From Candidatus Omnitrophota bacterium (lineage in GTDB: Bacteria; Omnitrophota; Gorgyraeia; Gygaellales; Profunditerraquicolaceae): 64,000 nt of DNA. A program made the position numbers and the translations under genes. Of this stretch, positions 10,089-56,644 are shown in pieces. How positions within the stretch are numbered: position 1 is the stretch's first letter; each line of letters begins with the position of its first letter. Below the pieces are notes generated by a model. The model was given only the letters and a program-made list of their open reading frames with translations. It searched no databases and was not told where the DNA came from. Location of the stretch: contig JBDRLG010000126.1 of the NCBI GenBank assembly GCA_043813255.1, positions 2,882 to 66,881 of the forward strand. Reading direction: 5' to 3'.

Positions 10089-10125
10089 GCTAATCCCCTT
10101 TTTTGTCCTAAATGTATATTTGGTT

Positions 10126-36885: not shown

Positions 36886-37083
36886 TTTAATTTTTTTTAA
36901 AATTCAGCAGAATTAAGCCATTTTTATTTGCTATATTATCAATTTCATCCTTATGCTTTTTTTATTGGACCCTATATCTAAATCTGAATGCCCAGCATAT
37001 TTTTAAAAAATAAAAATAATAACTGTTTTTATTATAAAGGCATTTTTTCATAGTGGATAAGTACTTTATCTCTTATAAATATA

Positions 37084-38970
37084 TTATTTGTTATTTAGTA
37101 CTAAGTATACATATATAGCAATAATTCCTAATAGACTGCCTATTAATCCAATTAATAAATTATGCGGGAAATAAGTTAATTTTATTAATCCAGCTGTTTT
37201 TTTATCCATATCAATAGATAGTAATCCGGTATAATTACCTATTTTTCCTTTATTGCTTTTCCATCCGGTATGATAATTTTGGTTAATAATCAATTTATCA
37301 GGGGTGGTTATTTTAGTATCTATAATTATTTTATTGGGGCTAAAATATAATAGATTAGCTTGGTTTTGTTCTTGTAGAAAGTATATTTCACCTTTATATT
37401 GAGAGTTAATTTTTAATTCAGGCATTATTTTATTGAAATCCATGATATGGTTAAAGACGGTATCGGCCTGTTGCTTGTTAATAAAATACTTTGGGAGAGT
37501 ATAGTGGTCTATGTCTATTGTTGGATAGAAATTAACTATCCCTATATTTTGTTGAAATAACGGATAAAACCAAAAGTCATCATTTTGCTTTTTATTTAAA
37601 TGATTGATCTCGTCCGGCCTTTTATAAAATTCTATTTGGAAAAAATCAGCATTATTTGTTTTATATATCTTTTCTTTTGGTAAATAACTGATTCTATTAA
37701 GGATTGAATAACTTAGTCTGCTTACTTCATAAATGGAGATTATTGCAAGTAGGATAAATATATATTTTAAAATATTTGTTTTTTTGATTTTATCGGTTAA
37801 TGAAAAACTTTGCCCGGCAATAAGAGCTATAAGGAAAAAAATATAAGGTAAAAAATATTTATCCGGTTTTACTATGCCGCGTGTAAAATTATTAATATTC
37901 CATAAAGGTTTATATATATCTATTAAACTATTGGGCCCGAACATTAAAATAGTAAAAAACAATAAAAGGATAAAATAGATGATACTTCTTTTAAAGTAAG
38001 TCAATAATGACACGAACAATAAAAAAATAGTTATATAGCCAAAATATATAGACAGGTATTCCGGTTGGATGTTTTTCTTAAATAAGCTATCGTATAATTT
38101 TTTTACAGTAAAACATCTTTCTGGAAGTGTCTCTTCTATCCTTCCTTCTTTATCTATTGCGGTTATCCCGTAAGATTTCTCTACTTCAGGAGAATTATGG
38201 AAATATTGATAATTTCTGGAATGTAATAAATCAATCATGGGGATAATTTTAATACTGCTTATTAATAGAGAAAATATTATTAATAAGATAAACTTTTTGA
38301 AATATCTATAGTTTAAAAATGAGCTATCCGTATGAGTAAAATTAAATGTTTTTAAAACTACAAATAGCAGGATAAATAAACATACGATAATAAAATTTAG
38401 GCCGGCGGACAATATATAAAAACTTAAAAAAATTGAAGCAAGCGGCAGATATTTAGGCCTTGAAAATGATTTAATAAAAAAAGAGATAAGAAATGGTAAA
38501 AAACAAATAGATAAATAATATATGTCACTGTCAATTATTCTATAAGCGAACCAGGGGCAAATTATAAATAAAACGGAAGAATAAATAGCTCCCAAATAAT
38601 TATATTTAAGTAAGTTTTTTGTTAAATAAAACATTCCAAGGGCTCCGATTAGAAGATAAGCTATTACAATCAATTTCACCCCGATAATTTCTTTAAATAA
38701 TCCTATGAATATGCCAAATGGATTTAAATTCCAGCCTTCAATGTCTCCTATGACTGGATATCCTCCTGAAAAAAGATAGGTTCTAAAAGGGAGTTGATGA
38801 AAATTTGATAGTGATTGGCTTAGTGGGATTGCTAAAGTATAATAGCGTCCCCATCCTTGTAGAGGTTGTTCGATATTTCTAATAAGCGGGAAATAAGTGA
38901 ATATTAATATAGTTATTAAGAGTAAATAACTTATCGTGTTAATTTTAGTTATATGTAGTTTTTTTAACAT
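37084..38970 (-). CDS. YfhO-like GT-C polytopic membrane protein (paralog pair A)
   Basis: 628 aa, polytopic. The C-terminus LIINQNYHTGWKSNKGKIGNY resembles the YfhO C-terminal motif. It is paralogous to 38945-40906, sharing YHQLPLRT...SGGYP near the N-terminus. Confidence 0.55.
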   Translation of the reverse strand: MLKKLHITKINTISYLLLITILIFTYFPLIRNIEQPLQGWGRYYTLAIPLSQSLSNFHQLPFRTYLFSGGYPVIGDIEGWNLNPFGIFIGLFKEIIGVKLIVIAYLLIGALGMFYLTKNLLKYNYLGAIYSSVLFIICPWFAYRIIDSDIYYLSICFLPFLISFFIKSFSRPKYLPLASIFLSFYILSAGLNFIIVCLFILLFVVLKTFNFTHTDSSFLNYRYFKKFILLIIFSLLISSIKIIPMIDLLHSRNYQYFHNSPEVEKSYGITAIDKEGRIEETLPERCFTVKKLYDSLFKKNIQPEYLSIYFGYITIFLLFVSLLTYFKRSIIYFILLLFFTILMFGPNSLIDIYKPLWNINNFTRGIVKPDKYFLPYIFFLIALIAGQSFSLTDKIKKTNILKYIFILLAIISIYEVSRLSYSILNRISYLPKEKIYKTNNADFFQIEFYKRPDEINHLNKKQNDDFWFYPLFQQNIGIVNFYPTIDIDHYTLPKYFINKQQADTVFNHIMDFNKIMPELKINSQYKGEIYFLQEQNQANLLYFSPNKIIIDTKITTPDKLIINQNYHTGWKSNKGKIGNYTGLLSIDMDKKTAGLIKLTYFPHNLLIGLIGSLLGIIAIYVYLVLNNK

Positions 38971-40906
38971 TGATTAAATAGATTATTAAAGCTGTTATGC
39001 TGAATATACTTATCCATAGTCCCACAAAAAAATCTAAAGGCTTATATTTTAGGTTTATTATATAACTACCGGTAATATTTAATTTGATTCCTAATAGTCC
39101 TTGATAATTGAATATTTCCCCATTATCTGTTTTCCAGCTTTTATGGTAATTTTGGTTTATAATTAAAGTATCAGGCTGTTTAAGAGTTATTTTTATTTTT
39201 ATATCGTTAGGACTAAAATATAAAAGTTCTGTTTTATTTTTCTGGTTAAGAGTATATATCTCTCCTTTATATGCAGGATTAATTGTCCCGGATAGAGTTA
39301 AATCAACAGATTCATTTTTTGGTAAATCATAAAAATTTTCAACGTAAACACATTCTTTTTTTAATCCGCCCGTTTTAATAAAGTATTTAGGTACAGCGTA
39401 TTCCCCGATATTTATTATTCCATGTTGTATAAAATTTACCAATCCTATATTTTGATTTAATAATATCCAAAAAGGCTGATATGAACGAATGTCTTTAAAT
39501 CCATTATAACCGGGCAGATCTCTTGGTTCTTCTTTTTTAAAGATTTCAGCCTGGAAAAAAGAAGGATATTTCTTGCATATAGGGATTTTTTCATAGACTA
39601 AGTCACGGAATAATAACCTGCTATGGTAAAATATATTAGTTATGCCGGCTATAAGCGTTAATAGTATTAAAAATTTAATAAATTTTTGTTTTATATGCAG
39701 TTCATTTAAAAAATTTCCCGAAATAATGGATATTAAAAATGGGGGAAAAAAACCAAAATATTTATTAAGTCTCCACATGCTGTAATCAAATGGTATCAAT
39801 CGCGATAAGTATTTAAATAAGTCAATAGGGCTGTTTGGTCCAAATTGTATAAGCAGGAATATAAAAAAAATAACAACATAATTCAACACGCGTTTTGAAT
39901 AAAAAATAGAAATAATAAAAATCAATAAAGGTATATAACCTAAATACATTGTTGAATACCCTCTAAAATTAGGATCAAGCAAAGAATCTTTTAATTGAGA
40001 AAGATTTAAGCAGGCCCCAAAGCCTTTAATAGAAGCAGAAATAAAGGTGTATGAATCTTTATATGGAGTGATATCAGAGGGAATTTTTTGAGAAAACAGC
40101 TGTAAAAAAGGCAATGTTTTAACAGAGCTGACTAATAGTGAACAAATAACAGTTATAAAAAAAATAGAAATATAAAAAAAACTTATATTGATTTTTCGCT
40201 TATTAGTTATTGTTATGATATTTAAACAAGAAAAAAGAAATAAAAATAGTAAAATGGGAAATAATATTAAAGGGTTAGAAAGAAAAATTAAGCTTAACGT
40301 TAGAACTAAATATATTATGGATTTTTTATCAGTCTTACATTTTATAAAAAAAGCCATCAGCCAAGGTAGTAAATAAAAAAACAATTTTTCTAAATTACCA
40401 TCAATAGCTTCGTATGCTCCCCAATTGCATAGAATGAATAATAAACTTGAAAACATCGTGCTTATAAGAGAATATTTTAAGACGTGTCTAGTTAGATAAA
40501 ACATGCCTGACGCGCCGATAATAAATATCAGGAAGGCCATAAGCCTTATCCCTGTTATTTCTCCAAATAACAGAATTAAAATAAAAAAAGGGGTCAGGCA
40601 AAAATTAGATGGATGTGCGATAAAAGGATATCCACCGCTTAAATATGGTGTTCGTAGCGGTAATTGATGGTATTCTAATATAGTTGTTTTAGAAAGTGCC
40701 GCGTAATAATAATTTCTCCACCAGTCGTTTTCATTTATGGTTGTGTTAGGAATATTCTTCAGAAGAGGCAGATAAAACATGGCTGTAATAATAATAATAA
40801 GTAAAATGCAGAGCAGTTCTTTTTTTGAAGACAAAAAATTTTTAGGTCCTTTGTCCTGATAATAATTTTGGCAGCTATTTATTAAGCTTGTTTTGTTTAT
40901 TGCCAT
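38945..40906 (-). CDS. YfhO-like GT-C polytopic membrane protein (paralog pair B)
   Basis: 653 aa. The C-terminus LIINQNYHKSWKTDNGEIFNY is paralogous to the 37084 gene. Confidence 0.55.
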   Translation of the reverse strand: MAINKTSLINSCQNYYQDKGPKNFLSSKKELLCILLIIIITAMFYLPLLKNIPNTTINENDWWRNYYYAALSKTTILEYHQLPLRTPYLSGGYPFIAHPSNFCLTPFFILILLFGEITGIRLMAFLIFIIGASGMFYLTRHVLKYSLISTMFSSLLFILCNWGAYEAIDGNLEKLFFYLLPWLMAFFIKCKTDKKSIIYLVLTLSLIFLSNPLILFPILLFLFLFSCLNIITITNKRKINISFFYISIFFITVICSLLVSSVKTLPFLQLFSQKIPSDITPYKDSYTFISASIKGFGACLNLSQLKDSLLDPNFRGYSTMYLGYIPLLIFIISIFYSKRVLNYVVIFFIFLLIQFGPNSPIDLFKYLSRLIPFDYSMWRLNKYFGFFPPFLISIISGNFLNELHIKQKFIKFLILLTLIAGITNIFYHSRLLFRDLVYEKIPICKKYPSFFQAEIFKKEEPRDLPGYNGFKDIRSYQPFWILLNQNIGLVNFIQHGIINIGEYAVPKYFIKTGGLKKECVYVENFYDLPKNESVDLTLSGTINPAYKGEIYTLNQKNKTELLYFSPNDIKIKITLKQPDTLIINQNYHKSWKTDNGEIFNYQGLLGIKLNITGSYIINLKYKPLDFFVGLWISIFSITALIIYLINVKKTTYN

Positions 40907-40914
40907 ATAATTCC

Positions 40915-42534
40915 TTATATATTTGTATGCTGAAAAGAGGAATCTTTTATTTTAATAACAAAAATATCTCCATCGTCAAATAGAATTTCATTTTTTGGAG
41001 TATCCATTAAAATAAATTTTTTTCTACCGGCTATTAAACTTTTAATATAAGTATTAAAAGGATTAAGATAGAACTCGGCATTGGCTAAATAATCTTTGGA
41101 AAAATGCCTTCTTTCGACTATCAAATGAGTAATATGGTATTTTTTGCAGAAGTTATAAACTTCTGCAGCTGAATTTGAATAATAGGCTTTAAAGAAATTA
41201 TAGGTTCTTTCTTTTATTACAGGGTAAAAATTAGCATACATCGGCTGAGATGTTTCTTCATTAATTAAAACCTTCCTTTTTGAATATACTGGAATATAAT
41301 CCATTGATGTGGGATGGCCGGCAATAAGTATATCTTTCGGCAGTGTTTGTAAGAAGTTATATAGTTTGGGCTTAGGCGCAATACTATAGTCACTATATAA
41401 AGTAGGAATAAATAAAACAGCAGAAAAAAATAAAAAGCTTATTAATATGAAAAATCTTACGTTTATATTCTTTATTTTTCCTAAAACGTTAGCAATATTA
41501 ATAGACACAAGAATCGTTAATATAGTAGGCAGAGAATATCTTATATATCTGGCAGGCCCATAGAGTTTATAAAGCATAATTGTTGCAAATATATATAAGA
41601 TAAATGACGCAATAATAAAATAACAAAGCTTTTTTGGTGCTTCGAAAGAGTGCCTTTTTAAAAATAATAGTAAGAATAACAATGCCAGTATAAGAAATTT
41701 TACAGGAAATGTAATGGCAAAGCCTGTTTCTGCATTAACCAATTGTTCTAATAATGAGGGATAAAATAATACCTTTCTGCCTCCGGGATAAAACTCAGGC
41801 ATGCCGGATATATTATTGAATCCGAATAATTGAAGCTGACTGTTTGATGCTTTTAGAATAACTAAAAAAGAGATAATTAGTACCAAGAATAATAAATAAT
41901 ATATTTCAGCTTTTTTAATCTTTTTATACTTATAGAAAATATCCCAGATATAGGCCAGAAGACATATAAGAAATGTGGGTGGATAGAAAAATATCAATTG
42001 AAAAATCAAAGAAAGGCCCATCCGCAAGATATTTTTTTTTAAAAAATAGTATAAGAAAATAATAAAAAATATCATCGCGAAATTCATGACTCCCCCAGCC
42101 CCCATAAATTCATATTTATTATCGGACCATATTATAAAAATATATAGTACTCCGGACAAAATACCAGCGATATTCCCTTTTAAAAGCTTTCCGATTTTAA
42201 ACATATATAAGGATGATATAAAACAGAGAAAAAAAGGCAGGATTTTAGTGAATTGTATCGGGTCGTAAAACAGGCTTATTATAGAATAAAAAATATTAAC
42301 TCCCCAAGGGCTCCATTTTGAGTAAAAATCAGTTATAAAATCATTATTAAAGAGGCTCTTATCCTGGTTCTTTAAAAAAATATATATATTCTGTCTTACA
42401 TCGTCATTTAAGGCGTATTTATTGATTAATAACGGATATTGGCAGTATAAAGTAATTAAAAAAGAGGCCAGAATTAGAAAAATAATTATTTTATTTTCTG
42501 AAATTTTCTCGATATCAAACATGGTTTTAATCAA
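40915..42534 (-). CDS. Polytopic membrane protein, putative GT-C-fold glycosyltransferase (paralog of 15628-17232)
   Basis: 539 aa. The NDDVRQNIYIFL / SPWGVNIFYSII blocks and a long C-terminal block are shared with the 15628 gene. Confidence 0.45.
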   Translation of the reverse strand: MIKTMFDIEKISENKIIIFLILASFLITLYCQYPLLINKYALNDDVRQNIYIFLKNQDKSLFNNDFITDFYSKWSPWGVNIFYSIISLFYDPIQFTKILPFFLCFISSLYMFKIGKLLKGNIAGILSGVLYIFIIWSDNKYEFMGAGGVMNFAMIFFIIFLYYFLKKNILRMGLSLIFQLIFFYPPTFLICLLAYIWDIFYKYKKIKKAEIYYLLFLVLIISFLVILKASNSQLQLFGFNNISGMPEFYPGGRKVLFYPSLLEQLVNAETGFAITFPVKFLILALLFLLLFLKRHSFEAPKKLCYFIIASFILYIFATIMLYKLYGPARYIRYSLPTILTILVSINIANVLGKIKNINVRFFILISFLFFSAVLFIPTLYSDYSIAPKPKLYNFLQTLPKDILIAGHPTSMDYIPVYSKRKVLINEETSQPMYANFYPVIKERTYNFFKAYYSNSAAEVYNFCKKYHITHLIVERRHFSKDYLANAEFYLNPFNTYIKSLIAGRKKFILMDTPKNEILFDDGDIFVIKIKDSSFQHTNI

Positions 42535-43507
42535 ATAATTTCTTTATATTTAAAAACTCATCCAGATTAAATTTTAGGAAACAATTCATTTCCAATGTGC
42601 TGGTGCACCAGCAGCCTTCACATTTTGAAACAGGTAAATTAAGATGCGTTTCTTCGAGAAAAGGAGTTAAACAATTAGGGGCTTTCGTTTTCTCCATCAG
42701 CATCGTGCACGGGTATAAATCTCCTTCGGAAGAAATACAATAAGTTAATCTTCCTCCATAACAGGTCATTTTATTATAAGAAGGCCAGTCATATAAATAC
42801 TTTAACGCTGTTAAAGAATTTATGATGTATTTATTGTTTTTTTTTAATAAAATTAGTTTTTTAATTGTTTTTCTATAATTCTCTTTATCAGGAAAAAGGT
42901 GATTAATATTTGCCTCTCCGGAATGAACGTAACTCAAGGGTTGAAATTTTACTTTTACATTTAGTTCTCCGGCCTTTTCTAAGATAAAATCAACAGAATC
43001 CAAATTATATTTTGATAAAGTAGTATTAAATTTCGTGACTAAGCAATGCCTTTGTGCCAATTTTACAGCAGCTATTGTATCTTTATACGAGCCTTTCCCT
43101 CTGATAAAATCATGTATATCTTCCGGCCCGTCAAAACTCAGCTTAAGAATATCTAAATGTTGTAATTCTTCTATCTTAAGAGGCAATAATGAACCATTAG
43201 ATGTTATTCCGGTAAAAATATTCTTACTGTGACAGTAATTTATAATCTCTCCTATATCTTCTCGTAATAAAGGTTCCCCTCCGCTGAATATGATTATTTT
43301 TGTTCCTTTTTTAGAAAATGTATTAATAATTGATAATATTTCTTTAGTGTTTAGTTCTTTGCAGGGCGTATTCCATCTAGAGCAGTATTTACATTGCCGA
43401 TTGCATCTGTTAAGCAGATGCCAGCTGATAATTAAAGGTATCTTTTTGTTAAACAGCTTTACTTTGATGACTGCTTTTAATGAATCCCATTTAATTCTTA
43501 AGTTCAT
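42527..43507 (-). CDS. Radical SAM protein with SPASM/twitch domain (paralog family)
   Basis: 326 aa. LLNRCNRQCKYCSRW is followed by the C-terminal Cys set CYGGRLTYCISSEGDLYPC...CEGCWC. Confidence 0.85.
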   Translation of the reverse strand: MNLRIKWDSLKAVIKVKLFNKKIPLIISWHLLNRCNRQCKYCSRWNTPCKELNTKEILSIINTFSKKGTKIIIFSGGEPLLREDIGEIINYCHSKNIFTGITSNGSLLPLKIEELQHLDILKLSFDGPEDIHDFIRGKGSYKDTIAAVKLAQRHCLVTKFNTTLSKYNLDSVDFILEKAGELNVKVKFQPLSYVHSGEANINHLFPDKENYRKTIKKLILLKKNNKYIINSLTALKYLYDWPSYNKMTCYGGRLTYCISSEGDLYPCTMLMEKTKAPNCLTPFLEETHLNLPVSKCEGCWCTSTLEMNCFLKFNLDEFLNIKKLFD

Positions 43508-44579
43508 TTTTTATTACCTCAAAAATTCCATCCGCAATTATTTGATTTTGTTTTTCTCCTACATGGCAATAATCTATAAAATAAGTTCCTGATTTATTAT
43601 CAAAAAGATGAGAAAGATTATGGAATTTTGGCCTGTTTAATCTGTCTGCCAAGGTGTATGTATAAAAATAAATTCTTTCTAATTCTTTATTTTTAAAAGC
43701 AAGTGCTGTTATTTCTTCATTTGTTTTTGGATTGACCATGAAAAGCACGGGCTGCCAAAAGAAACTGTATTTAAAACCATATGCTTGAGACAGCCTTTCA
43801 ATTAAATCCATATTTTTTTTATAATCTTTTATGATTTGATACGCTAGATTTTCCAAAGCAGTTTCATCATACATATTGTTCTTTTTAAAAACGTTATTCA
43901 AATAGGAAAATAAATAAATAAATTTGGAATTAGTTAAAAGTGCCTCTTCGCTCAGTTTATTAAATATTCTGGGTTCTAATCCCAGTTTCATTTTCCATCT
44001 GTTATAATTATAGATAAGCCCTGCTTCCCTGTTTTGTAATGCTGCCAGTACATCATTAACCCCGTCGTAAAAAATTACATAATCGGGGATGTTGCCTTTT
44101 TTTAACTGAGTAATTAAAAGAATGATTTCTTGAGTTAGGACATAGCCGGCTTCTCCAAAGTTAGTCACAGAATACGACTCTGTGTTTTTATTTATATTTT
44201 TTGAAAGCAAAGAAGCTATGGTAAAGTTATCTCTTACGCCTGTACCCCAAACAGTAGATCCGCCAAAAATAAAAACTTTATTTAATTTTTTTGTATCTTT
44301 AGGGTTCCAGGTCTTTCTTATGCCCTCATCTGATATATTAATAAATTTACCCGCATAACCCTGTCTTCTCCATTCATAGAAAGGATAATAATTTTTTTTA
44401 AGTTGATCGAATTCCATAAAATACTGTTTTGCCCAAGGGGAATCTTTGTAGATAGATGATTCGTAGCGTTTATTTTTATTCCAAGAATAAACATCTTTTA
44501 TAAAAAAATAAAATCTGGCGCTTAATTCAAGCCCCGCTAATAAAATAATAAAAAATATTATTTTTAGTATTAATTTCAT
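43491..44579 (-). CDS. SGNH-hydrolase-fold protein, membrane-anchored
   Basis: 362 aa with an N-terminal TM helix. Block I is VFIFGGSTVWGTG (a putative Ser nucleophile in GGST), block III is VIFYDGVNDV, and block V is IDYCHVGE (DxxH). Confidence 0.5.
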   Translation of the reverse strand: MKLILKIIFFIILLAGLELSARFYFFIKDVYSWNKNKRYESSIYKDSPWAKQYFMEFDQLKKNYYPFYEWRRQGYAGKFINISDEGIRKTWNPKDTKKLNKVFIFGGSTVWGTGVRDNFTIASLLSKNINKNTESYSVTNFGEAGYVLTQEIILLITQLKKGNIPDYVIFYDGVNDVLAALQNREAGLIYNYNRWKMKLGLEPRIFNKLSEEALLTNSKFIYLFSYLNNVFKKNNMYDETALENLAYQIIKDYKKNMDLIERLSQAYGFKYSFFWQPVLFMVNPKTNEEITALAFKNKELERIYFYTYTLADRLNRPKFHNLSHLFDNKSGTYFIDYCHVGEKQNQIIADGIFEVIKNELKN

Positions 44580-46015
44580 TTTAAATTTTGTTTTCTAAAC
44601 ATGGAAATTAATAATTTTGTTCCATTCCAATAAAAATTCATCAGTTTTAAAAAATAATTATTCTTGATAGATTTAATAATAAATGACGGGTTTAAATAAA
44701 ATTTAATATAAGCTTTTTTAATTAAAAATTTTAAATCTTGAGAACTTAAATCCGGTGTATTTAGTACCGGATTTTCGGGAAGAAATGTCCAGTTTGACCA
44801 GTTTTGATGATGCGGGATATATCCTTTTTCTAATGATAATCTATAAAACTCTGTTCCTACTAATGGAAGAGCTATGTAAAAATCAGCGGCAGTGGGTTTA
44901 ATTACATTTAGAAATCTTAAAGTCTCTTTGAAAGTTTGTTTAGTTTCTCCCGGGTAGCCTATAATAACACATGCCGTTGCGGCTATCCCTATTTTGTGCG
45001 TTAATCTGAAGGCCTCTTTAATTTGAGCCAGAGTAAATTGTTTATTCATGGCATTTAAAATTTGTTGAGACCCTGATTCTACTCCAAAGCGTAATAAGCG
45101 GAATTTCGCTTTTTTTAGTTTTTTTAATATGGGTTCATCAACAGAATCGACCCGCAGCATGCAGGTAAGATTAAGATTGTAATCTCTTTCTATTAAGCCA
45201 TCCAGTATTTTAAATAGCCGGGGTTTATTGGCTAATAAGCAGCTGTCGCTTATCTCAATGCATTTTATATTGTGTTTTTTGACTAATAAATCAATTTCAC
45301 TTAATATATACTCCGCGCTTTTAAAATAAATACAATTACCCCAAACACTTCTTATTCCGCAAAAAGTACAATTATAACGGCATCCTCTGGATGTAAATAA
45401 ATTTGTATACGGGCTCAACTCAATTTCTTCGTAAGACCAAAAATGATGTAATTTGATTCCGTATTTGTTCATTGGTAAAAGGTGATAAGCTGGAAAAGGC
45501 AATTTATCCAGATTTGTTATTCTTTCTCTTACTGGATTAAATTTCATATGTCCGTTATCTCTATAAACAAGCCCTTTTACTTTAGAAATATCTTTATTAT
45601 TTTGCAATGTTTCTAAGAGTTCAAATAATGTTATTTCTCCTTCTCCGATTATCCCAAAATCAATGACTTTGTATCCAGCCATAGTTTCTAATGGCAGAGC
45701 GGAAAAATGAGGCCCTCCCATAATACTTATGCATTTAGGGTTTATTGCTTTTGCTATTTTTAGGATATCTATTGTTTGAAGGAAGGTAGGAGTCAATGAA
45801 CTAACTGCAATTGCGTCAAAATCTTTAGGAAGATATTTATGTAAATCTTCCAAGAGAATATTATCAACTGCTGGATCAAATATTTGGACTTCAAACCCTT
45901 TATCTAATAAAAAAGCAGCTAATCCCGCCAGATTTACTGGAGGCGTTTTTCCAAATGATTTACTAATCTTCGAGTATAGATAATGATGAGGTATACCGAC
46001 AAAAAGAATTTTCAT
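44576..46015 (-). CDS. B12-binding domain radical SAM enzyme (second copy)
   Basis: 479 aa. The N-terminal B12-binding Rossmann-like domain is followed by the rSAM core FTSRGCRYNCTFCG. It is paralogous to 18898-20316. Confidence 0.85.
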   Translation of the reverse strand: MKILFVGIPHHYLYSKISKSFGKTPPVNLAGLAAFLLDKGFEVQIFDPAVDNILLEDLHKYLPKDFDAIAVSSLTPTFLQTIDILKIAKAINPKCISIMGGPHFSALPLETMAGYKVIDFGIIGEGEITLFELLETLQNNKDISKVKGLVYRDNGHMKFNPVRERITNLDKLPFPAYHLLPMNKYGIKLHHFWSYEEIELSPYTNLFTSRGCRYNCTFCGIRSVWGNCIYFKSAEYILSEIDLLVKKHNIKCIEISDSCLLANKPRLFKILDGLIERDYNLNLTCMLRVDSVDEPILKKLKKAKFRLLRFGVESGSQQILNAMNKQFTLAQIKEAFRLTHKIGIAATACVIIGYPGETKQTFKETLRFLNVIKPTAADFYIALPLVGTEFYRLSLEKGYIPHHQNWSNWTFLPENPVLNTPDLSSQDLKFLIKKAYIKFYLNPSFIIKSIKNNYFLKLMNFYWNGTKLLISMFRKQNLK

Positions 46016-46016
46016 T

Positions 46017-47033
46017 TTAAAGTAATATTTTTCTTATTAAATGTAAAATATCCAGCTTAAAAGCCATTAAATAATTTAATTCTATTGTGCCGCAAAATCC
46101 ACAACCGCTACATGGCGGCAAATCAGGTAGATTATTAAATGCCTCTTTGAAGCCAACCTCTGCGCAATTGGGAATTTTAGTATCATATTTAAGGCGGTCA
46201 CAAGGAGAAATTTCTCCATTTGCTGCAATCATGCAAAATATCTTGCCTCCCCAGCATTTTAATTTTTCATATTGAGGCCAGTTATATATATGATGAAGGC
46301 CGCGTAAAGAATTCCTTAATAGAAAATTATTTTGTTTTTTATAGGAGATAAGCTTATTTATTGTTTGTTTAAAAAGAGATTCCAAAGGTTCTATCGAATC
46401 TAATTTTCCTGTCGTATTCTTGTACTCTATTTCTTTTAAAGGTTGAAAAGCTACAATGGTATTAAACTTTTTTGCAATAGCGAGAATATCATCAATATAT
46501 TTAATATTAAATTTAGTTAAAGTAGTAGTAAAAATAAAAAATATTTTATTAGTTTGTGCGCATGAAGCAGCATTTATTGCCCAATTATAGCTTTCTTTTT
46601 TTCCTCTTACTAATTCATTAATATCTGCAGGGCCATCTAAACTTATTTTGAGTAAATCCAAAGCTTTTAGTTCTTTTGCTTTTTTTTCAAAAAGATAACC
46701 GGTGGAATTCATCTCGGGAGAAATCCCTAATCTTTTGCAATAGGTTATAATATCTCCTATATCTTCTCTTAGTAAAGGTTCTCCTCCGCTAAAGGAAATT
46801 TTTTTAGTTCCACACCTTTTGATTTCTTCTAAAAGTTTAAAAATTATTTTTGTTGGAAGCTCTTTTTCACTGGGTGATTTCCAGATTTTACAATACTCGC
46901 ATTTAGAAGGGCATTTTTCCGTAAGCTGCCAGCGTATTGCCAAAGGGGTCCTTTTATTAAAAAGTTTAACTTTAAAAATTATATTTAAAGCTTCTAATTG
47001 TTTTTTGTAATTTAATCTTGTTTTTTTTCTCAT
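46017..47033 (-). CDS. Radical SAM protein with SPASM/twitch domain (paralog family, divergent cluster motif)
   Basis: 338 aa. The cluster motif here is LTEKCPSKCEYCKIW (Cx3Cx2C). The C-terminal Cys set is CWGGKIFCMIAANGEISPC...CSGCGFC. Confidence 0.8.
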   Translation of the reverse strand: MRKKTRLNYKKQLEALNIIFKVKLFNKRTPLAIRWQLTEKCPSKCEYCKIWKSPSEKELPTKIIFKLLEEIKRCGTKKISFSGGEPLLREDIGDIITYCKRLGISPEMNSTGYLFEKKAKELKALDLLKISLDGPADINELVRGKKESYNWAINAASCAQTNKIFFIFTTTLTKFNIKYIDDILAIAKKFNTIVAFQPLKEIEYKNTTGKLDSIEPLESLFKQTINKLISYKKQNNFLLRNSLRGLHHIYNWPQYEKLKCWGGKIFCMIAANGEISPCDRLKYDTKIPNCAEVGFKEAFNNLPDLPPCSGCGFCGTIELNYLMAFKLDILHLIRKILL

Positions 47034-47120
47034 TAATTTTCCCCCGTAATTAATTATTTATTATAATCCAAAAATATTCAATTTATCTTATAAAATTATA
47101 CTATTAAAATCTACGTGGAA

Positions 47121-48672
47121 TTAATTTTCCCTACTAATTATTACTGGAGGAATAATACATTTATATATATTAACGCCATTAAATTGTTTCTGCTCTATAA
47201 GCTGGTAGAATGTAGTTATATACTCTTTTATGCCATTTGCAGTACCTTCATAAACTGCCCATCGGCTAAGAAAAATCCAAGCGCAGGTATTCTTTTTAAT
47301 GTTTTGAAGTTTTATTAATTGTTTTAATTGTTCAGTATTATTTATCCCCAATATCTTATTAGGCGCCTCATTATATTCAAAACCTCCCAGGATTAATTGT
47401 ACGCCTATTTTTTTATCAATATCCAACTTGCTTGTTTTTAAATATTTTAACCCATTTTTACCATAATATCCTAATAATCTGGCTTGTTTAGCTAAAGCGA
47501 TAATTATTATATCATCTTTTTTTTATATTTTCATTAATATAACCTATAGCTTCCTCCCAGTTTATTTTTAATTCTTTAGTGAAATAATAAATTAAAGAAT
47601 TAATAGTTAATAATAATATAGTGAAAATTACAATTTTTTTAAATTTTAATTTATTTATACCTGCCGCAATAATAATAAGGAATGGGGGTAACGCATAAAT
47701 AATATATCTAATAACATATATAGGAAAAAAAATAATTGAAATAAAGAAAGGGATGAAAATTGAGCTTAACCATAAAATAATCAATTTTAGATTATTTTTA
47801 TACTGGGGTTGTTTTAATAAGGATAAACCAAATAGAAACAATATTCCAAACACATAGACTAGATAATGGGGTATTAATAGAAACTTAGAATTTATTTGTA
47901 AATCATTACCCCCGTAATTTTCTGCACCATAACAAAAAGTCTTAAAAGTTTCTATTAGAGTGTTTAATCCAGGCCTTTTAATCCAATTGGTACTGGTTCT
48001 AATCCAAGGGTCATTAATTAATGCAAAAAATATTGGTATAGCCCAAAGCAGGAAGAATGATAACAGAATTAATTGTGATATTATCCAACGCCTATTTTTT
48101 TCTTGTTTATGTATGATAAAAAAGAAAATATTTTGTATAAATATGACTAATATCCCAAAAGAAAATGTATATAGTAATAAAATATTAATTAAAATAATAA
48201 GGAGATACTGTTTTATTCTATTTTCTTTAATTAGTTTTATAAATATAAGCATAGAACATAAAGATAAAAACAAGAAAAGACTGTAGTTTCTTATTTCTTG
48301 GGAATAGAATATATGAATAGGTGAGATGGATAGCAAAAAAGCGCTGATTAAGCCTATTTTTTGATTAAATAAGATTCTAGCGATTTTATATATTAAGAAG
48401 ATGGAACATATCCCAAAAATAGCTGATAAATATCTTAGTGCGGCTTCAGATAGCCCGAAGCACTTAATCCAGTATTTGAGCGCCCAAAAATAAAAAAAAG
48501 AATTATGAAATTTAGTAAATACTTCTATCGGGTTCCTCATCGCTAGATTAATAGAACCAGCTTCATCAAACCACAAACTTTCTTTATCTAAATTGTAAAT
48601 ACGCAGAATAGTGCCTAATAATAAAATAAAAAACAAACTAAAGAATATAGCTTTTGTATTTTTCATGCCCAT
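47121..48672 (-). pseudogene. GT39/ArnT-like GT-C glycosyltransferase interrupted by a frameshift in an A8 homopolymer
   Basis: The 386-aa ORF 47512-48672 carries LWFDEAGSINLAMRNPIEVF...SQEIRNYSL (first-loop DE motif, PMT_2-like) and ends NENIKKR-stop at 47512. If the A8 run at 47517-47524 were A7, the frame reads NENIKKDDIIIIALAKQARLLGYYGKNG... and continues directly into the downstream 101-aa ORF (47121-47426). That ORF therefore looks like the displaced C-terminal domain. Confidence 0.6.
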
Positions 48673-48674
48673 TA

Positions 48675-50339
48675 TTATATATGCCGCAAGATCATATAAG
48701 AACCAAATTTTTTCTCAATTTTATAGTTTGTTTTAATGAAATTATCAAAATCTAAAGCGCCGCTACTTTTACTGCTTGCATTTGGTTCATTTATTTCTTC
48801 TGCTCCTTCCCAGAGTATTACATAAGGTACGTAAATTTGTCTAAATTTATTAATTATTTCTCTTTGGACCTCGTTAGTATTTATTAGACCAGGATGTAAT
48901 TCGTGATATCTAATTGCGCAGTTTCTATCAGAAAAGAAATAAAAAATTATATCATTATAAACTATTTTGTCATGCCTTAAATTACCAACAAATATTTTAT
49001 CATTTGGTTTTGTGTTTTTTTGAATATATTGAATAACTTGATTTTGTGAATGAGAAAATTCAGAATTATCACAGTACATCCCTATAGCCCTGCTGTGCAT
49101 ACATATCGAATGATTTTTTATGGAGTATTTTGGAGGCAGATTATTAAATTTTATCATGCCAGGGAATATTAATAAAATAACTGTTAAAAAACAGGCTAAA
49201 TGAGCAGTAATCTTTTTTATGTTGTTTTTATCCGCGTCAAAGCTTCTTTTAAATAAGTTGTTTAATACTACAAAAAATAAAATTATAACTAAAGTTAGAG
49301 TAGATAAAAGATGTTCTATGTCTGCTCGCAGGCTAGAGTAAAAGAATAAATATAACAAAAATAGAGATAGAAACGATATTAGCCATAGATAAATATCTTT
49401 ATTTTTTCTTTTTAAATATATATATAAGTTAAAACCGGTTAAGAGAAAAATAAAAATAGGAAAATAAAAAATTAGATTATCTAATTGAAACTTTGGAAAA
49501 GGCAAATCTCTGACTTTAGGGTATATAAATATTGGAAAGAGCAGAGTATCTTTAATGAAATCATTAAAAGCTGAATTAAACATAAAATAAACTAAGAGAG
49601 GTAAAATAATAGATAAAAAGCCTAAAAACAGTAATATTTTTGTTTTAAAAATCTTAATAATTAATTTATTATTTGGTGTTATATTTTGACAATGATTTAA
49701 TTGTTGAAAAAAAATAGTAATAAATAATGAAATAAAACAAAAAAAACCAAAATCTTGCCTAAATAGGGTAATGATGCCGGATAATGTCCCGCAGATAAAC
49801 AGCCATAGTTTTCTATTAGAGGTTAAAAAGTTACAAAAGCTGATAGCGCATAAAATAAAAAATAATAAAGCTAACTGCGTAGGGCGGTTAAAAACTATAT
49901 AAAACCTTAAACAAATTAGAAGAAGTATAGATGTAAAAAAAGCGGGTATTCTTGAGTATAATTTTTTAATAAAAAAATATGCAGCGCATATTATTGAACT
50001 TAAGATTGTAATTGAAAATAATCTTTCTGTCTTTATGCTTATCCCGAATATTTTAAAAATCGCGGCAATTGTGTAAAATTCTGCCGGCCCATAAAGTGTC
50101 CAGAAGTCTTTATAAGGGATATCGCCATTTAATATTCGAAGAGCGCCATATGTAATTATTCCTTCATCATAAGGGTACGTTCTAAAATCAAGATATTGAT
50201 ATCCATATAAAAAACATATAAAAGATACAAAAAATAACAAAAAAATTATACTTTTATCAAAAAAGCAGTTTTTTTGCAGGAAAGTTGTTTTTGGTAAAAG
50301 ATCCCCCTTCTTTTTTATAATGAAATATTTAAAAATCAT
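48675..50339 (-). CDS. GT39/ArnT-like GT-C polytopic membrane glycosyltransferase
   Basis: 554 aa. The early periplasmic loop reads YPYDEGIITYGALRILNG...DFWTLYGPAEFY, with an acidic DE motif. About 12 TM helices are followed by a C-terminal soluble domain. Confidence 0.55.
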   Translation of the reverse strand: MIFKYFIIKKKGDLLPKTTFLQKNCFFDKSIIFLLFFVSFICFLYGYQYLDFRTYPYDEGIITYGALRILNGDIPYKDFWTLYGPAEFYTIAAIFKIFGISIKTERLFSITILSSIICAAYFFIKKLYSRIPAFFTSILLLICLRFYIVFNRPTQLALLFFILCAISFCNFLTSNRKLWLFICGTLSGIITLFRQDFGFFCFISLFITIFFQQLNHCQNITPNNKLIIKIFKTKILLFLGFLSIILPLLVYFMFNSAFNDFIKDTLLFPIFIYPKVRDLPFPKFQLDNLIFYFPIFIFLLTGFNLYIYLKRKNKDIYLWLISFLSLFLLYLFFYSSLRADIEHLLSTLTLVIILFFVVLNNLFKRSFDADKNNIKKITAHLACFLTVILLIFPGMIKFNNLPPKYSIKNHSICMHSRAIGMYCDNSEFSHSQNQVIQYIQKNTKPNDKIFVGNLRHDKIVYNDIIFYFFSDRNCAIRYHELHPGLINTNEVQREIINKFRQIYVPYVILWEGAEEINEPNASSKSSGALDFDNFIKTNYKIEKKFGSYMILRHI

Positions 50340-52753: not shown

Positions 52754-55700
52754 TTATCTATTGTATATTTGTTCAATTCTATTCTTCATTTCATTGCCAA
52801 TTTTACTAAAATTAAGATTTTTTTTAATATCCGAAGCAGCAATATTTCCCATTGCTTCAGCTTTGGCTTTATTTTCATAAACATACCGCATCAATTCCGT
52901 AGCATGTTCAATACTTGGCTCTGCCCAAATATTTCCTTTGGTGTAAGGGCCTGAGTTTTTTTGAATTTCTTTAATTTTATAATTTACTAAGTAGCTGTTA
53001 TTAGAATTCATAAAATCAAGATTTCCTGAATAGTTAGTTGCTATAACCGGCTTGCCTAAATACATCGCTTCCGCCATTGTCAGGCCAAATCCTTCAGAGC
53101 GATGCAAAGACACATACGCATTGCAATGTAAAAGCAAAGCATTGATTTCATCTCTATAAAGATATTTATCAAGTATGCTTATCTTCATCATCTCAGATTC
53201 TTTTTTCATTTTTCTGAATGAATGTGGGGCAAAAGCAGAATTGGAACATTTAATCACTAGGCGAATATTGTCATTAGCGGAAAAGGCCTGTTTAAATGCC
53301 TTGATAATCGCCAAGGGGTTTTTTCTTTCAAAATAACTAAAGAAATCAAACATAAATAAGAAAATAAACTCATTTTCCTGCAAAGAAAAATACTCTCTTT
53401 TTACTTGTTTTATTGTTTTGATTTCCACGGCATGAGGAATTACTTTTACAGGAATAGGCGATTTCATGGATATTGCCTTATAAGCAAATTTACTGGGAGT
53501 CCATATTTCATCGCAATAAGAAAAACTTTTTTCCCATTTATCCGGAAAATTATTCAGTTCCCACACCCAATATCCAATATTGTATTTATTGTTAAAATAA
53601 CTGGTCCCTTTTTCCGTTACAAGTTTACTAAACATATCCGCGTTTATGTGAATAAGGTTAATGGGATAAGGATTGATTTTAGATAATTTTGAGACAAAGA
53701 AAAAATCACTCTGGCGGCTGGGGGAATGATTATCGATATTAATAATGGCTAAATTTGTGCCTACTGCCTCAAAACATTTTGCACTTGCTCGAGCACCTTC
53801 ACCTATTCCTAACTCAGTTGTTAGGTAACCGATAAGATTTATTCCATTTGGTTTATTAAACTTTTTATTTCGGGATTCGGATTTTTTTGATGAAACGCGG
53901 CTAAAAATTTCCAGCTTTTTATATAAATTCAACTCTATAATTTTTAGATTATTGATTCTCCATGAATTATTACGAAGAATAGCTTTAAGTATTTTTTTTA
54001 AAACTTCTCTAGTTTTATGGAAAAAGCTTATTTTTAAGATCGACAGATAACCATTATTATACATATTTGTGAAAGGATAAAATTTATTGATAAACGATTC
54101 ATCCAGTTTATATTCATTAATAGCATTTGATAAAAACCATCCCACAAATTTTTTTCGATCAACCCCAAATAAATTTGGATAAACAATCTGTAGATCGCTT
54201 CTTTTTTTGTATATCGCATACATAAACCTATTAAGGGTTGGTTTTTGATTATCCAGCCGCTCATTAAGCCAGTTAAAAAAACTTCTCCCTTCCGTTTTAA
54301 ACGGATTTGTAAATTTTTCGTTTTCATCATATAAATTCCAATACAGCCTTCTAATGAAATCTGGTATTTGTACACCGTTGTCAAAATAATTAAGAACACA
54401 AGGCCAATTCTTAGTTTCATCATAATTATGTGTTTTAAGCTTATTCCGATATAATTCAAAAACGCCAATCATATATTCTAAATCAACCAAAGTGAATCTA
54501 TCTTGATGTTTAGATATAACTTTCAAATCATCAGGGTTAAATCCACTAAAGTGCATAAATTTAACCTGAATACCGTCGACAGATAGATTTTCTTCGTTTA
54601 TTAAGACCTTGCGATAATGAAAATTCCAATATGCGATATTATAAGTTTTATCCCTAAGAATATGTACGCCTTCGAAAAATCCGGGAACCAGATCAATCCA
54701 TTTCTGGTCTACAAATAGCCCTTTTTCAACATCTGAAATACAATAACGTTTGAGGCGTTCTTTCCACCAAGAAAGAAGAGTTCTTGTAGTTTGATTATTT
54801 GCAAGAGCAATAAACCCTAAATTATATACACCGCTTTTTAATATTTCGATTTCTGATGGTCTTCGGGTATCTTGATAAGGCTGAGTTATATGCGGGATAA
54901 GAATAATAGAATATTTTCCTAATAAGTTTGATAATTCATTAAGATTACTAGTTATAAGTATATCCGGATCAAGAAAAATAATATCTTTTGGTTTATAGAT
55001 ATCAAAAATAAATTCTAAGAAGAAAGGTTTAACTGCTGTATTTAACTCAGTAGGATTATATTGGAAACAAAATTTATCAAACGCTGGTATTCTTTTTTTA
55101 ATTGTTTCTAATTCTATCAGAATAAATTTTTCCTTTGTAGGATCAAAATAATCGTCAATCCTGTCGGTTAAGAGAACGAAAACCCGTCCTTGATTATGTT
55201 TTAGGAATGATTCTGTAAGTACCCGTGCGTAACTTAAATAGTTTTTAGAGATAATAGTACAAATAGTTAAATAACTGTTTGAGGTATCCTCTTTCTTTAT
55301 TTCTGGTAAAGTTAATGATGCCTTATTGATTGGTTGGTGGATAAACCCCTGAATCTGTTTTATTTTCCAGAGAATTGACCATAGCGGACGCACTAAAAAT
55401 CTAAAAGCTGTAGAATTATAATAATCATTTATTTCGTGATTTTTTTTAGTTAACTCAATATTTAAATTAGCAATTTGCTCAGATAAAGTTTTAAAAAGAT
55501 TGTCTGCATAATCGTTTTTTTCTTTTAAAGCTAAGTCCCTTCTAGTAATTTCTTGATTAAGATTGTCTGCATAATCGTCTTTTTCTTTTAAAGCTAAGTC
55601 CCTTCTGGTAATTTCTTGATTAAGATTGATAAGATGTGTATCTTTAGATTTTATTATGAAATTTAGGGATCCAATTGTTTTTAATAATTCCGGTATCTTT

Positions 55701-56644
55701 TCTATTGAAATACTGTTTTCATGATTTTCAATTTTTTTTACCTCTTTAAATAGATCCCCCAAAACATCTTTAACAATATTAATTTTATGATGTTTTATTA
55801 ATTTGAGTACCAAATCAACTAATAGGGGGTATATATTTCTTTGCGCCTTAAAATTCCCTTGAGTAGTAAAATAACCATTCTCCAATAAAGCTTCGCATAT
55901 TTTTTTAGGATAATATTTAACGATTAGCAATAAACGATTTTTTTCCGTATAGAATAGGGGTAAATCTTCTTTAGTCGTACCATGATGAATATGATAGACG
56001 AAACTTTTAGGAGCACAAAAGAGTTTCCATCCTTTTCTTACCATTCTCAGAGAAATATCCACATCTTCCATATACATATTAAAATCTTCATCAAAATATC
56101 CAACGTTTTCCATAGCACTTTTTCGATAAAGAACTGCACAGCCACAAAGGCTTGTAACTTCTTTAGGATTATTAAGTGGGTTAGTATTGTCAAATGTTTG
56201 ATCAACCCAGTAAAAATTAGATAATTCTTGATGCCCCAAGCTCTCTATGGAGCCATCCATAAATAAAATTCTGCTTCCTACAGCTCCAATGGTAGAATCT
56301 ATCTGTAAACATTTCAGAAGATAAATAAGCCATTTTTTATCAACCTTGACATCATTATTAAGTAAAGCGACATACTTACCCTTTGTGGCCTTTATTCCCA
56401 GATTATTAGCTCTACAATAATTGTTAACATCATTTTTTAAAATTTTAACTTTGGAGAATTTATCTCTTACATACTCTATCGAACCATCGTCTGAACCGTT
56501 ATCGACCATAATTATTTCTATCTTGTCTTGTGGATAATCAAGTATTAATAAAGAATCAAAGCAACCTTTTAATAAATGTTTGCCATTATAGTTAACAATA
56601 ATTATGCTTACTAGAGGCAATTCTTTTGTCATTTTATCTCCCAT
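52754..56644 (-). CDS. Multidomain glycosyltransferase (GT2 - coiled coil - GT-A-like - GT4), WbbB/WbdA-like polymerase candidate
   Basis: 1296 aa. The N-terminal GT2 domain reads LVSIIIVNYNGKHLL...IIMVDNGSDDGS...LNNDV. A coiled-coil linker contains repeated NLNQEITRRDLALKEK(D/N)DYAD units. A central nucleotide-sugar-transferase-like domain reads TICTIISKNYLSYARVL...FLDPDI. The C-terminal GT4 domain has EGFGLTMAEAMYLGKPVIATNYSGNLDF. The alternative start MTKELPL at 56632 avoids overlap with the Wzt gene. Confidence 0.75.
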   Translation of the reverse strand: MGDKMTKELPLVSIIIVNYNGKHLLKGCFDSLLILDYPQDKIEIIMVDNGSDDGSIEYVRDKFSKVKILKNDVNNYCRANNLGIKATKGKYVALLNNDVKVDKKWLIYLLKCLQIDSTIGAVGSRILFMDGSIESLGHQELSNFYWVDQTFDNTNPLNNPKEVTSLCGCAVLYRKSAMENVGYFDEDFNMYMEDVDISLRMVRKGWKLFCAPKSFVYHIHHGTTKEDLPLFYTEKNRLLLIVKYYPKKICEALLENGYFTTQGNFKAQRNIYPLLVDLVLKLIKHHKINIVKDVLGDLFKEVKKIENHENSISIEKIPELLKTIGSLNFIIKSKDTHLINLNQEITRRDLALKEKDDYADNLNQEITRRDLALKEKNDYADNLFKTLSEQIANLNIELTKKNHEINDYYNSTAFRFLVRPLWSILWKIKQIQGFIHQPINKASLTLPEIKKEDTSNSYLTICTIISKNYLSYARVLTESFLKHNQGRVFVLLTDRIDDYFDPTKEKFILIELETIKKRIPAFDKFCFQYNPTELNTAVKPFFLEFIFDIYKPKDIIFLDPDILITSNLNELSNLLGKYSIILIPHITQPYQDTRRPSEIEILKSGVYNLGFIALANNQTTRTLLSWWKERLKRYCISDVEKGLFVDQKWIDLVPGFFEGVHILRDKTYNIAYWNFHYRKVLINEENLSVDGIQVKFMHFSGFNPDDLKVISKHQDRFTLVDLEYMIGVFELYRNKLKTHNYDETKNWPCVLNYFDNGVQIPDFIRRLYWNLYDENEKFTNPFKTEGRSFFNWLNERLDNQKPTLNRFMYAIYKKRSDLQIVYPNLFGVDRKKFVGWFLSNAINEYKLDESFINKFYPFTNMYNNGYLSILKISFFHKTREVLKKILKAILRNNSWRINNLKIIELNLYKKLEIFSRVSSKKSESRNKKFNKPNGINLIGYLTTELGIGEGARASAKCFEAVGTNLAIINIDNHSPSRQSDFFFVSKLSKINPYPINLIHINADMFSKLVTEKGTSYFNNKYNIGYWVWELNNFPDKWEKSFSYCDEIWTPSKFAYKAISMKSPIPVKVIPHAVEIKTIKQVKREYFSLQENEFIFLFMFDFFSYFERKNPLAIIKAFKQAFSANDNIRLVIKCSNSAFAPHSFRKMKKESEMMKISILDKYLYRDEINALLLHCNAYVSLHRSEGFGLTMAEAMYLGKPVIATNYSGNLDFMNSNNSYLVNYKIKEIQKNSGPYTKGNIWAEPSIEHATELMRYVYENKAKAEAMGNIAASDIKKNLNFSKIGNEMKNRIEQIYNR
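55496..55621. repeat. Direct tandem duplication, 2 x 63 bp (2 mismatches), inside the coiled-coil coding region of the 1296-aa glycosyltransferase
   Basis: The unit AAGATTGTCTGCATAATCGT(T/C)TTTTTCTTTTAAAGCTAAGTCCCTTCT(A/G)GTAATTTCTTGATT is repeated head-to-tail. A third partial copy starts at 55622. It encodes two 21-aa units NLNQEITRRDLALKEK(D/N)DYAD. Confidence 0.9.

Follow-up and report, generated by a model that had tools for sequence, protein, structure and literature searches.

A one-base change in an adenine run splits a predicted GT-C glycosyltransferase gene in a surface-polysaccharide cluster of an Omnitrophota bacterium

The interrupted gene

The DNA considered here is a stretch of 64,000 nucleotides, hereafter the window, from a metagenome-assembled genome (MAG) of a Candidatus Omnitrophota bacterium (NCBI GenBank assembly GCA_043813255.1, contig JBDRLG010000126.1). 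Its minus strand carries a gene for a predicted membrane glycosyltransferase whose coding sequence is interrupted by one surplus base in a run of adenines. The two open reading frames (ORFs) found at this place, 47512-48672 and 47121-47426, derive from one ancestral gene, which is divided by a change of one base in the length of the A run. The locus is made up as follows.

47121-48672, minus strand: the whole interrupted gene, predicted to encode a GT-C (PMT_2) glycosyltransferase of 516 codons once one A is removed
47512-48672, minus strand: N-terminal fragment of 386 amino acids, with all the predicted transmembrane helices, the D36-E37 motif of loop 1 and the first helix of the soluble domain
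47517-47524, minus strand (T8 on the plus strand): the A8 homopolymer, site of the one-base excess
47512-47514, minus strand: premature TGA in the shifted frame, two bases past the A8 run
47124-47516, minus strand: coding sequence of the C-terminal alpha/beta domain, 131 codons in the +1 frame, conserved from the first codon
47121-47426, minus strand: the ORF of 101 amino acids as called from a TTG start, a remnant and not an independent gene

The 386-codon ORF ends in GAA AAT ATA AAA AAA AGA TGA, the final A of the run being the first base of the AGA codon. An earlier, sequence-only reading of this DNA had described the ORF as ending ...NENIKKR-stop inside the A8 tract; its coordinates and frame arithmetic are correct, except that the stop is located after the run and not within it. 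The same reading had proposed that a run of seven would join the two ORFs, and this is borne out: with one A fewer the frame reads ...NENIKKDDIIIIALAKQARLLGYYGKNG... and continues stop-free into ORF 47121-47426, giving a merged product of 516 amino acids whose homologues span the junction. The A7 version, ...NENIKKDDIIIIALAKQARLLGYYGKNGLKYLKTSKLDIDKK..., passes through the TTG at 47426 and terminates at the stop 47121-47123. The rescued form would carry the junction peptide ...NENIKKDDIIIIALAK, as opposed to the C-terminus ...NENIKKR of the truncated form. A7 restores the conserved frame and A9 leads to a stop three codons on. The run is positioned 75% of the way along the gene.

In the public record of the source MAG (NCBI, 'Candidatus Omnitrophota bacterium', contig of 67,516 bp) the two halves are held under separate protein accessions and the frameshift is unflagged. 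MFH1441761.1, a 'glycosyltransferase family 39 protein' of 384 amino acids, is annotated from the second ATG of the 386-codon ORF, and MFH1441760.1 is the 'hypothetical protein' ABIH18_06980 of 101 amino acids.

Homology across the junction

The merged protein has 43 relatives, the best 16 of which are 503-662 amino acids long and cover 81-98% of the query across the junction. E values against full-length homologues extend from 6e-277 to 1e-51, a resemblance far beyond chance, and all 16 aligned homologues are single ORFs. The closest, P0001, shares 84% of its amino acids with the merged protein and is encoded on Logan contig L001; the alignment between the two is unbroken at the junction, where the window reads YINENIKKDDIIIIALAKQARLLGYYGKNGLKY and P0001 reads YINANIKKDDIIAIALAKQARLLGYYGKNGLKY. 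Conserved positions are found on both sides of the break. Upstream of it, all 17 aligned sequences have D36 and E37 (WFDE), and H120 and Q125 are conserved; downstream, D387, Y402, Y403 and G499 are nearly invariant and Y503 is invariant. Orthologues ending naturally at the position of the premature stop, which the sequence-only reading had named, together with reads uniformly supporting A8, as what would speak for two separate genes, were looked for and no close orthologue does so.

A phmmer search of 1.8 billion representative proteins with the downstream frame by itself (131 codons, 47124-47516) returned 12 matches, down to E = 1e-32. Eleven are longer proteins, mostly of about 450-534 amino acids with one of 268, which are matched in their C-terminal part from query residue 1 or 2 onwards; the twelfth, the window's own 101-amino-acid ORF, is the sole stand-alone match. 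As every match but the window's own lies within a longer protein, the domain never occurs as a separate gene, and a stand-alone gene for it was ruled out by this search. Homology starts at the first codon past the A run and precedes by 30 codons the TTG from which the short ORF has been called.

The 101-amino-acid ORF itself matches no Pfam or NCBIfam family. Inspection of the sequence revealed no Shine-Dalgarno-like element ahead of its TTG, and neither a signal peptide nor a hydrophobic N-terminus. Because it is devoid of a ribosome-binding site and an export signal, this ORF is unlikely to be made or exported on its own and should not complement the missing domain. Concerning the other half, a protein collection clustered at 90% identity files the 384-amino-acid fragment (P0055) under an unrelated representative of 53 amino acids. 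The 53-amino-acid proteins grouped with it were considered as possible relatives and rejected, the sequences being unrelated and the grouping a clustering artefact; this misfiling may explain why the fragment was absent from the homology search with the merged protein.

These observations amount to a correction of the record, as the 384-residue 'GT39 protein' and the 101-residue 'hypothetical protein' are halves of one 516-residue GT-C glycosyltransferase, and the latter ought not to be treated as a separate gene family. The practical value of the analysis lies in merging two mis-annotated ORFs into one frameshifted GT-C gene.

Protein family, fold and effect of the truncation

The merged protein can be placed firmly, on profile and model evidence, among the GT-C-fold membrane glycosyltransferases of Pfam family PMT_2. 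PF13231 matches residues 58-208 with 53.3 bits against a cut-off of 26.1 and is present in all close homologues. No NCBIfam model scored above its cut-off, with sub-threshold similarity only to the Agl23, mannosyltransferase and STT3 models, and a profile of 17 sequences found no PDB chain at E <= 0.01. The protein has about 10-11 hydrophobic segments, within the range of 7-13 transmembrane helices of GT-C membrane cores. Its AlphaFold2 model (mean predicted local distance difference test score 84.8; predicted template modelling score 0.87) has a membrane core of helices that extends to about residue 364; a further helix follows at 372-382, ahead of an alpha/beta domain whose strands occupy 388-392, 431-443, 463-469 and 490-506. 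Foldseek matched this model with probability 1.00 to STT3, PglB, AglB, ArnT, Pmt4, ALG9/12, DPY19, AftA and Emb; E values were 1e-7 for STT3/PglB/AglB and 3e-6 for ArnT (5F15, template modelling scores of 0.57 and 0.55).

The GT39/ArnT-like character assigned by the sequence-only reading holds at the level of the PMT_2 family and GT-C superfamily, in agreement with Pfam, homologues, model and Foldseek. The specific name 'ArnT' is not established, as the similarity is at the level of the fold only. The PMT profile (PF02366), recorded for few of the homologues only, and the MIR domain have no match in the window protein. Bacterial GT39 enzymes also do not possess MIR, and its absence does not exclude GT39.

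The D36-E37 pair probably has a catalytic role. By analogy with characterized enzymes, the donor would be a polyprenyl-phosphate-linked sugar, used at the outer face of the membrane, and the C-terminal domain would be extracytoplasmic. The proposal that the short ORF represents the missing C-terminal domain is upheld, homology and model showing it to be a soluble domain, and analogy suggests its periplasmic location. In the model the break falls at residue 386/387, just past the first helix of this domain, and strips away its entire beta-sheet; the membrane core and the invariant D36-E37 loop are kept. Extra extracytoplasmic domains of GT-C enzymes range from dispensable to merely rate-enhancing (PMC11127046), so that the truncated product could be inactive or merely weakened.

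The A run in the window and in relatives

The window is AT-rich (29.8% GC) with a coding density of 95%, and no other gene in it looks interrupted. Runs of A or T are plentiful: 49 of exactly eight bases and nine of nine bases, which makes 58 of at least eight in 64 kb. Fifty-four are inside ORFs, at all relative positions, and 53 of these are in frame; only the run at 47517-47524 breaks the frame. The A8 tract is of background length and is not special.

Contig L001 is collinear with window positions 37083-50275 at 85% nucleotide identity. It exhibits the same gene order (PMT_2, PMT_2, radical SAM, B12-binding radical SAM and so forth) and all its genes are intact, with lengths matching those of the window. 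In the 13-kb synteny alignment every other indel inside a gene body is a multiple of three in length, the extra A being the sole exception. At the site of the run L001 has ATA AAG AAA GAT GAT (AAAGAAAG) in an intact gene, and two more distant relatives read ATG AAA AAA GAC (A6; L082) and ATT AAG AAA AAT (AAGAAAAA; L083). The A8 run is thus specific to the window's lineage.

Searches for further copies of the locus were negative. Among GTDB species representatives the best relative is 40% identical, with no genome of the same species or genus there. Exact look-ups of the truncated protein and its neighbour retrieved nothing beyond the source MAG, and a search with the junction-spanning peptide returned only that MAG's own 101-amino-acid ORF. 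In the Joint Genome Institute (JGI) metagenomes a degenerate DNA pattern across the junction found no match and a protein-guided scan found no relative. No allele of alternative length was encountered in the protein or contig collections searched.

Two matches to the GT-C protein have identical statistics (40% identity, E = 7e-102, over the same residues), one being on a contig labelled 'uncultured bacterium' (L003, CAZLCT010000017.1) and the other on a contig binned as 'Candidatus Helarchaeota', an Asgard archaeon (L002, SUPR01000117.1). This identity of the match statistics suggests that the latter is a bacterial contig mis-binned in an archaeal MAG.

Age of the lesion

The ratio of nonsynonymous to synonymous substitution rates (dN/dS) relative to L001 is 0.152 for codons 1-385 and 0.194 for codons 386-516, the corresponding values for eight neighbouring genes being 0.12-0.24. 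When changes were polarised with seven outgroups, the C-terminal part showed six derived changes in the window lineage versus 11 in the sister lineage, and it contains no further stops or indels. On account of the low dN/dS, the lack of an excess of derived changes and the lack of further lesions, the C-terminal domain has remained subject to purifying selection during practically all of the divergence from L001. The extra A is either very recent or absent from the organism altogether.

Recent frameshift, consensus error or switch

The explanation favoured here, with somewhat more confidence than doubt, is a recent and unprogrammed insertion of one base in a homopolymer of background type, present in the assembled haplotype; the extra A would thus be located in the organism's DNA rather than in the assembly alone. 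In this scenario the codons for Ile-Lys-Lys would have drifted synonymously, under AT bias (G to A), to ATA AAA AAA, an A7 run, at a place where the sister lineage keeps AAG, and ordinary slipped-strand mispairing would then have added one A. Translation of the A8 form would stop two codons later and yield a protein of 386 amino acids, which keeps the whole transmembrane catalytic core and lacks the roughly 130 amino acids of the C-terminal alpha/beta domain, of which the 101-amino-acid 'hypothetical protein' would be the leftover. The sampled population would then carry a genuine allele of lost or reduced function, very recent in origin and unprogrammed, which may be slightly leaky through rare slippage of RNA polymerase or ribosome. 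By analogy with ArnT, Gtr-type enzymes and PMTs, the intact enzyme of 516 amino acids would transfer a sugar from a polyprenyl-phosphate carrier onto a glycan at the outer face of the cytoplasmic membrane.

A sequencing or assembly artefact, in which the organism has A7 and an intact gene of 516 codons and the extra A exists in the MAG consensus only, is possible although rather unlikely. Several points weigh for it and against a real insertion. Indel errors classically occur in homopolymers; the downstream part has neither relaxed constraint nor a second lesion and every conserved residue is intact, and such absence of decay is exactly what an artefact would give too. There is, moreover, no second independent sequence with A8, the only copies in the databases being the source MAG's own proteins. 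On the other side, the remaining 53 A/T runs of 8-9 bases in coding sequence of the 64 kb leave the frame unbroken and all other genes are intact, which argues against homopolymer data that are generally error-prone. The contig of about 67 kb also has the appearance of a short-read assembly, in which indel errors at an A8 tract would be uncommon. Of the possibilities raised by the sequence-only reading, a pseudogene and a sequencing or assembly indel are those still in contention.

An evolved phase-variable (contingency) locus, in which the A run is maintained and mispairing toggles a surface-glycan decoration on (A7) and off (A8), was the preferred interpretation of the sequence-only reading and is not sustained as such; it is regarded as improbable. 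Surface-glycan glycosyltransferase genes are often phase-variable in pathogens, and the gene belongs to this class, is part of a polysaccharide cluster and would have clean ON and OFF states with A7 and A8. However, runs of eight A or T are at the low end of the tracts known to switch at useful rates. The presence of 54 coding runs of at least eight bases, making its length that of the background, argues against 47517-47524 as a dedicated contingency tract. The run is also not conserved, the relatives reading AAAGAAAG, A6 and AAGAAAAA, it is late in the gene rather than near the 5' end, and no length polymorphism was detected in the collections mentioned above. Any A7 or A8 run is nevertheless expected to change length at an elevated rate (PMC3812077). 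It is conceivable, although little credence is given to the idea, that the A7/A8 run is a working but unselected stochastic switch by which subpopulations differ in one surface-polysaccharide decoration. If so, such differences could serve escape from phage or host recognition, and a truncated core with altered or reduced activity might generate three phenotypes instead of two. Mixed run lengths in the population would be an initial sign of phase-variable glycans in Omnitrophota.

Programmed recoding, either by slippage during transcription or by a ribosomal shift to the +1 frame on A AAA AAA AGA, so as to set the ratio of truncated to full-length protein as in tssM1 of Citrobacter rodentium, is more doubtful still. 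There are documented cases of slippage on A runs (PMC4256274, PMC5574713, PMC3812077), conservation of the downstream frame is complete, and a tRNA-Lys slipping from A5-7 to A6-8 would yield the conserved ...KKDD... sequence. Against this, the two-frame arrangement is unshared, as 16 of 16 aligned homologues are single ORFs, and the run is A8, the known cases having 9-11 (PMC4256274). The commonest slip, a gain of one A, gives ATA AAA AAA AAG ATG ATA TAA, with a stop after three codons; rescue of the frame needs one A lost or two gained, and in genome-wide measurements insertions predominate in A/T runs, deletions being much rarer, with 16 versus 151 events in Buchnera (PMC5574713). Reading of the sequence found no Shine-Dalgarno-like stimulator within a few bases upstream of the run, and the RNA downstream shows no more structure than shuffled controls (z = -0.21). 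No terminators were detected and promoter-like matches were at chance level (19 found, 14.7 +/- 3.9 expected). Runs of 3-8 bases, an A8 among them, acquire indels that are bypassed in part (PMC3812077), and a low-level accidental bypass of the present A8 as a side effect is plausible.

The weakest proposal, two genuine genes consisting of a naturally short glycosyltransferase and an unrelated small gene, follows the public annotation, in which the Prokaryotic Genome Annotation Pipeline issued accessions for proteins of 384 and 101 amino acids, but is practically untenable and, as judged from the homologue search, the alignment and the downstream-frame search, already refuted: homology to the same full-length proteins crosses the junction and the 30 codons upstream of the TTG, no close orthologue stops at the premature stop, the C-terminal domain is never found alone, and the short ORF has no ribosome-binding site or export signal.

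The finding is an ordinary one, a frameshift or a consensus error and not a demonstrable genetic switch. It provides an example of the occasional frameshift alleles that are expected in dispensable surface-glycan genes of AT-rich genomes abundant in A/T runs.

Genomic context

The region from about 11 kb to 64 kb of the window (approximately 11000-64000) is one huge surface-polysaccharide cluster. It includes genes for a Wzm/Wzt ABC transporter, several glycosyltransferases of families GT2 and GT4, an initiating transferase of the WecA/MraY type, an O-antigen-ligase-like protein, two PMT_2 and two YfhO membrane proteins, a carbamoyltransferase, an AsnB-type amidotransferase, a DegT aminotransferase and several radical-SAM enzymes. 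Judging from this gene content, the product is predicted to be a surface polysaccharide exported by the Wzm/Wzt transporter. The presence of a lipid A acyltransferase and a secretin indicates that the organism has an outer membrane. The immediate neighbours of the interrupted gene are the following.

48675-50339, minus strand: upstream neighbour, encoding another PMT_2 membrane protein, strongly diverged in sequence (PF13231, 29.8 bits)
46017-47033, minus strand: radical-SAM gene (SPASM-type), downstream of the GT-C gene
44576-46015, minus strand: B12-binding radical-SAM gene, downstream of the GT-C gene

The upstream neighbour was considered as a redundant paralogue or back-up and rejected, as BLASTP against the orthologue P0001 gave E = 0.71 and no significant similarity. 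The cassette of GT-C (PMT_2), radical SAM and B12-binding radical SAM genes is conserved, being present at 44576-48672 in the window, at 1638-5719 in L001 and at 3904-7966 in L083, where it is flanked by carbamoyltransferase, GT2 and YdjC genes, as elsewhere in the window.

The cluster contains at least six radical-SAM genes, among them B12-binding types at 18898-20316 and 44576-46015 and SPASM types at 13788-14831 and 46017-47033. This set suggests unusual sugar modifications, for example C-methylation or epimerisation. A full-length cobalamin riboswitch (RF00174, 76.4 bits) is located at 1948-2132 on the minus strand, upstream of a gene for a BtuF-like periplasmic binding protein (876-1766) and beside a gene for a CobA/BtuR corrinoid adenosyltransferase (2165-2668); it fits with the B12-dependent radical-SAM genes of the same window.

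Elsewhere in the cluster, a minus-strand gene at 52754-56644 encodes a protein of 1296 amino acids with an N-terminal GT2 and a C-terminal GT4 (Glycos_transf_1) domain. It adjoins the Wzt and Wzm genes, the Wzt carrying a C-terminal carbohydrate-binding domain, and its product is likely to be the polymerising enzyme of the glycan that depends on the ABC transporter. Large proteins of 534-704 amino acids without a Pfam family are encoded at 37084-42534, 31017-33131 and 15628-17232, and the gene at 15628-17232 is a paralogue of that at 40915-42534, with about 70% nucleotide identity over 400 bases, as traced via L001. The secretin gene at 8193-10154 (minus strand) combines Secretin, Secretin_N and STN domains with a C-terminal TonB_2 domain, an unusual fusion, and adjoins a gene resembling T2SS-C of the type II secretion system.

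Comparison with known systems

ArnT (GT83; PDB 5F15/5EZM) and the bacterial PMT_2/GT39-like GT-C enzymes resemble the merged protein in size (about 520-540 amino acids), in the multi-helix membrane core, in the acidic motif of the first extracytoplasmic loop (here D36-E37) and in the presence of a C-terminal soluble domain. In contrast with ArnT, the window protein has no sequence-level match to solved structures and is slightly closer in fold to STT3/PglB, and the immediate neighbours of its gene encode radical-SAM enzymes and a second PMT_2 protein rather than arn functions. A GT2 enzyme and a DegT-type aminotransferase, looked at as possible arn context, are found elsewhere in the cluster, and both families are generic.

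The phase-variable glycosyltransferases of Campylobacter, Neisseria, Haemophilus and Helicobacter are similar in that a one-base change in a homopolymer toggles the frame of a surface-glycan gene. The known homopolymer-switched glycosyltransferases mostly use long G/C runs, or runs that are conserved in the species and over-represented, usually near the 5' end, whereas the A8 of the window is of background length, unconserved and late in its gene.

A stop just after an A run, with the C-terminal domain in another frame, is shared with tssM1 of Citrobacter rodentium (PMC4256274) and with the frameshifted genes of AT-rich endosymbionts (PMC5574713), whose genomes are likewise AT-rich with many A runs. 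The tssM1 run has 11 A's, is rescued by added A's and occurs in an arrangement conserved in Yersinia (PMC4256274); the run of the window, on the contrary, is A8, must lose an A to restore the frame and stands in an arrangement seen in none of the relatives.

The three-component systems for periplasmic glycan decoration (GtrA/B/Gtr*) provide a further parallel, although no homology to GT136 or Gtr proteins was detected for the window protein. Phase variation of Gtr systems, where known, is epigenetic and not homopolymer-based. Like the Gtr enzymes and the GT136 enzyme ORF12 of Citrobacter youngae (PMC11127046), the merged protein is a predicted GT-C enzyme with a beta-rich, putatively extracytoplasmic C-terminal domain, encoded in an O-polysaccharide locus. 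In the window this locus comprises Wzm/Wzt genes together with a GT2 of about 294 amino acids and candidate membrane transporters. Three-component decorations are non-essential, so that their loss is tolerated.

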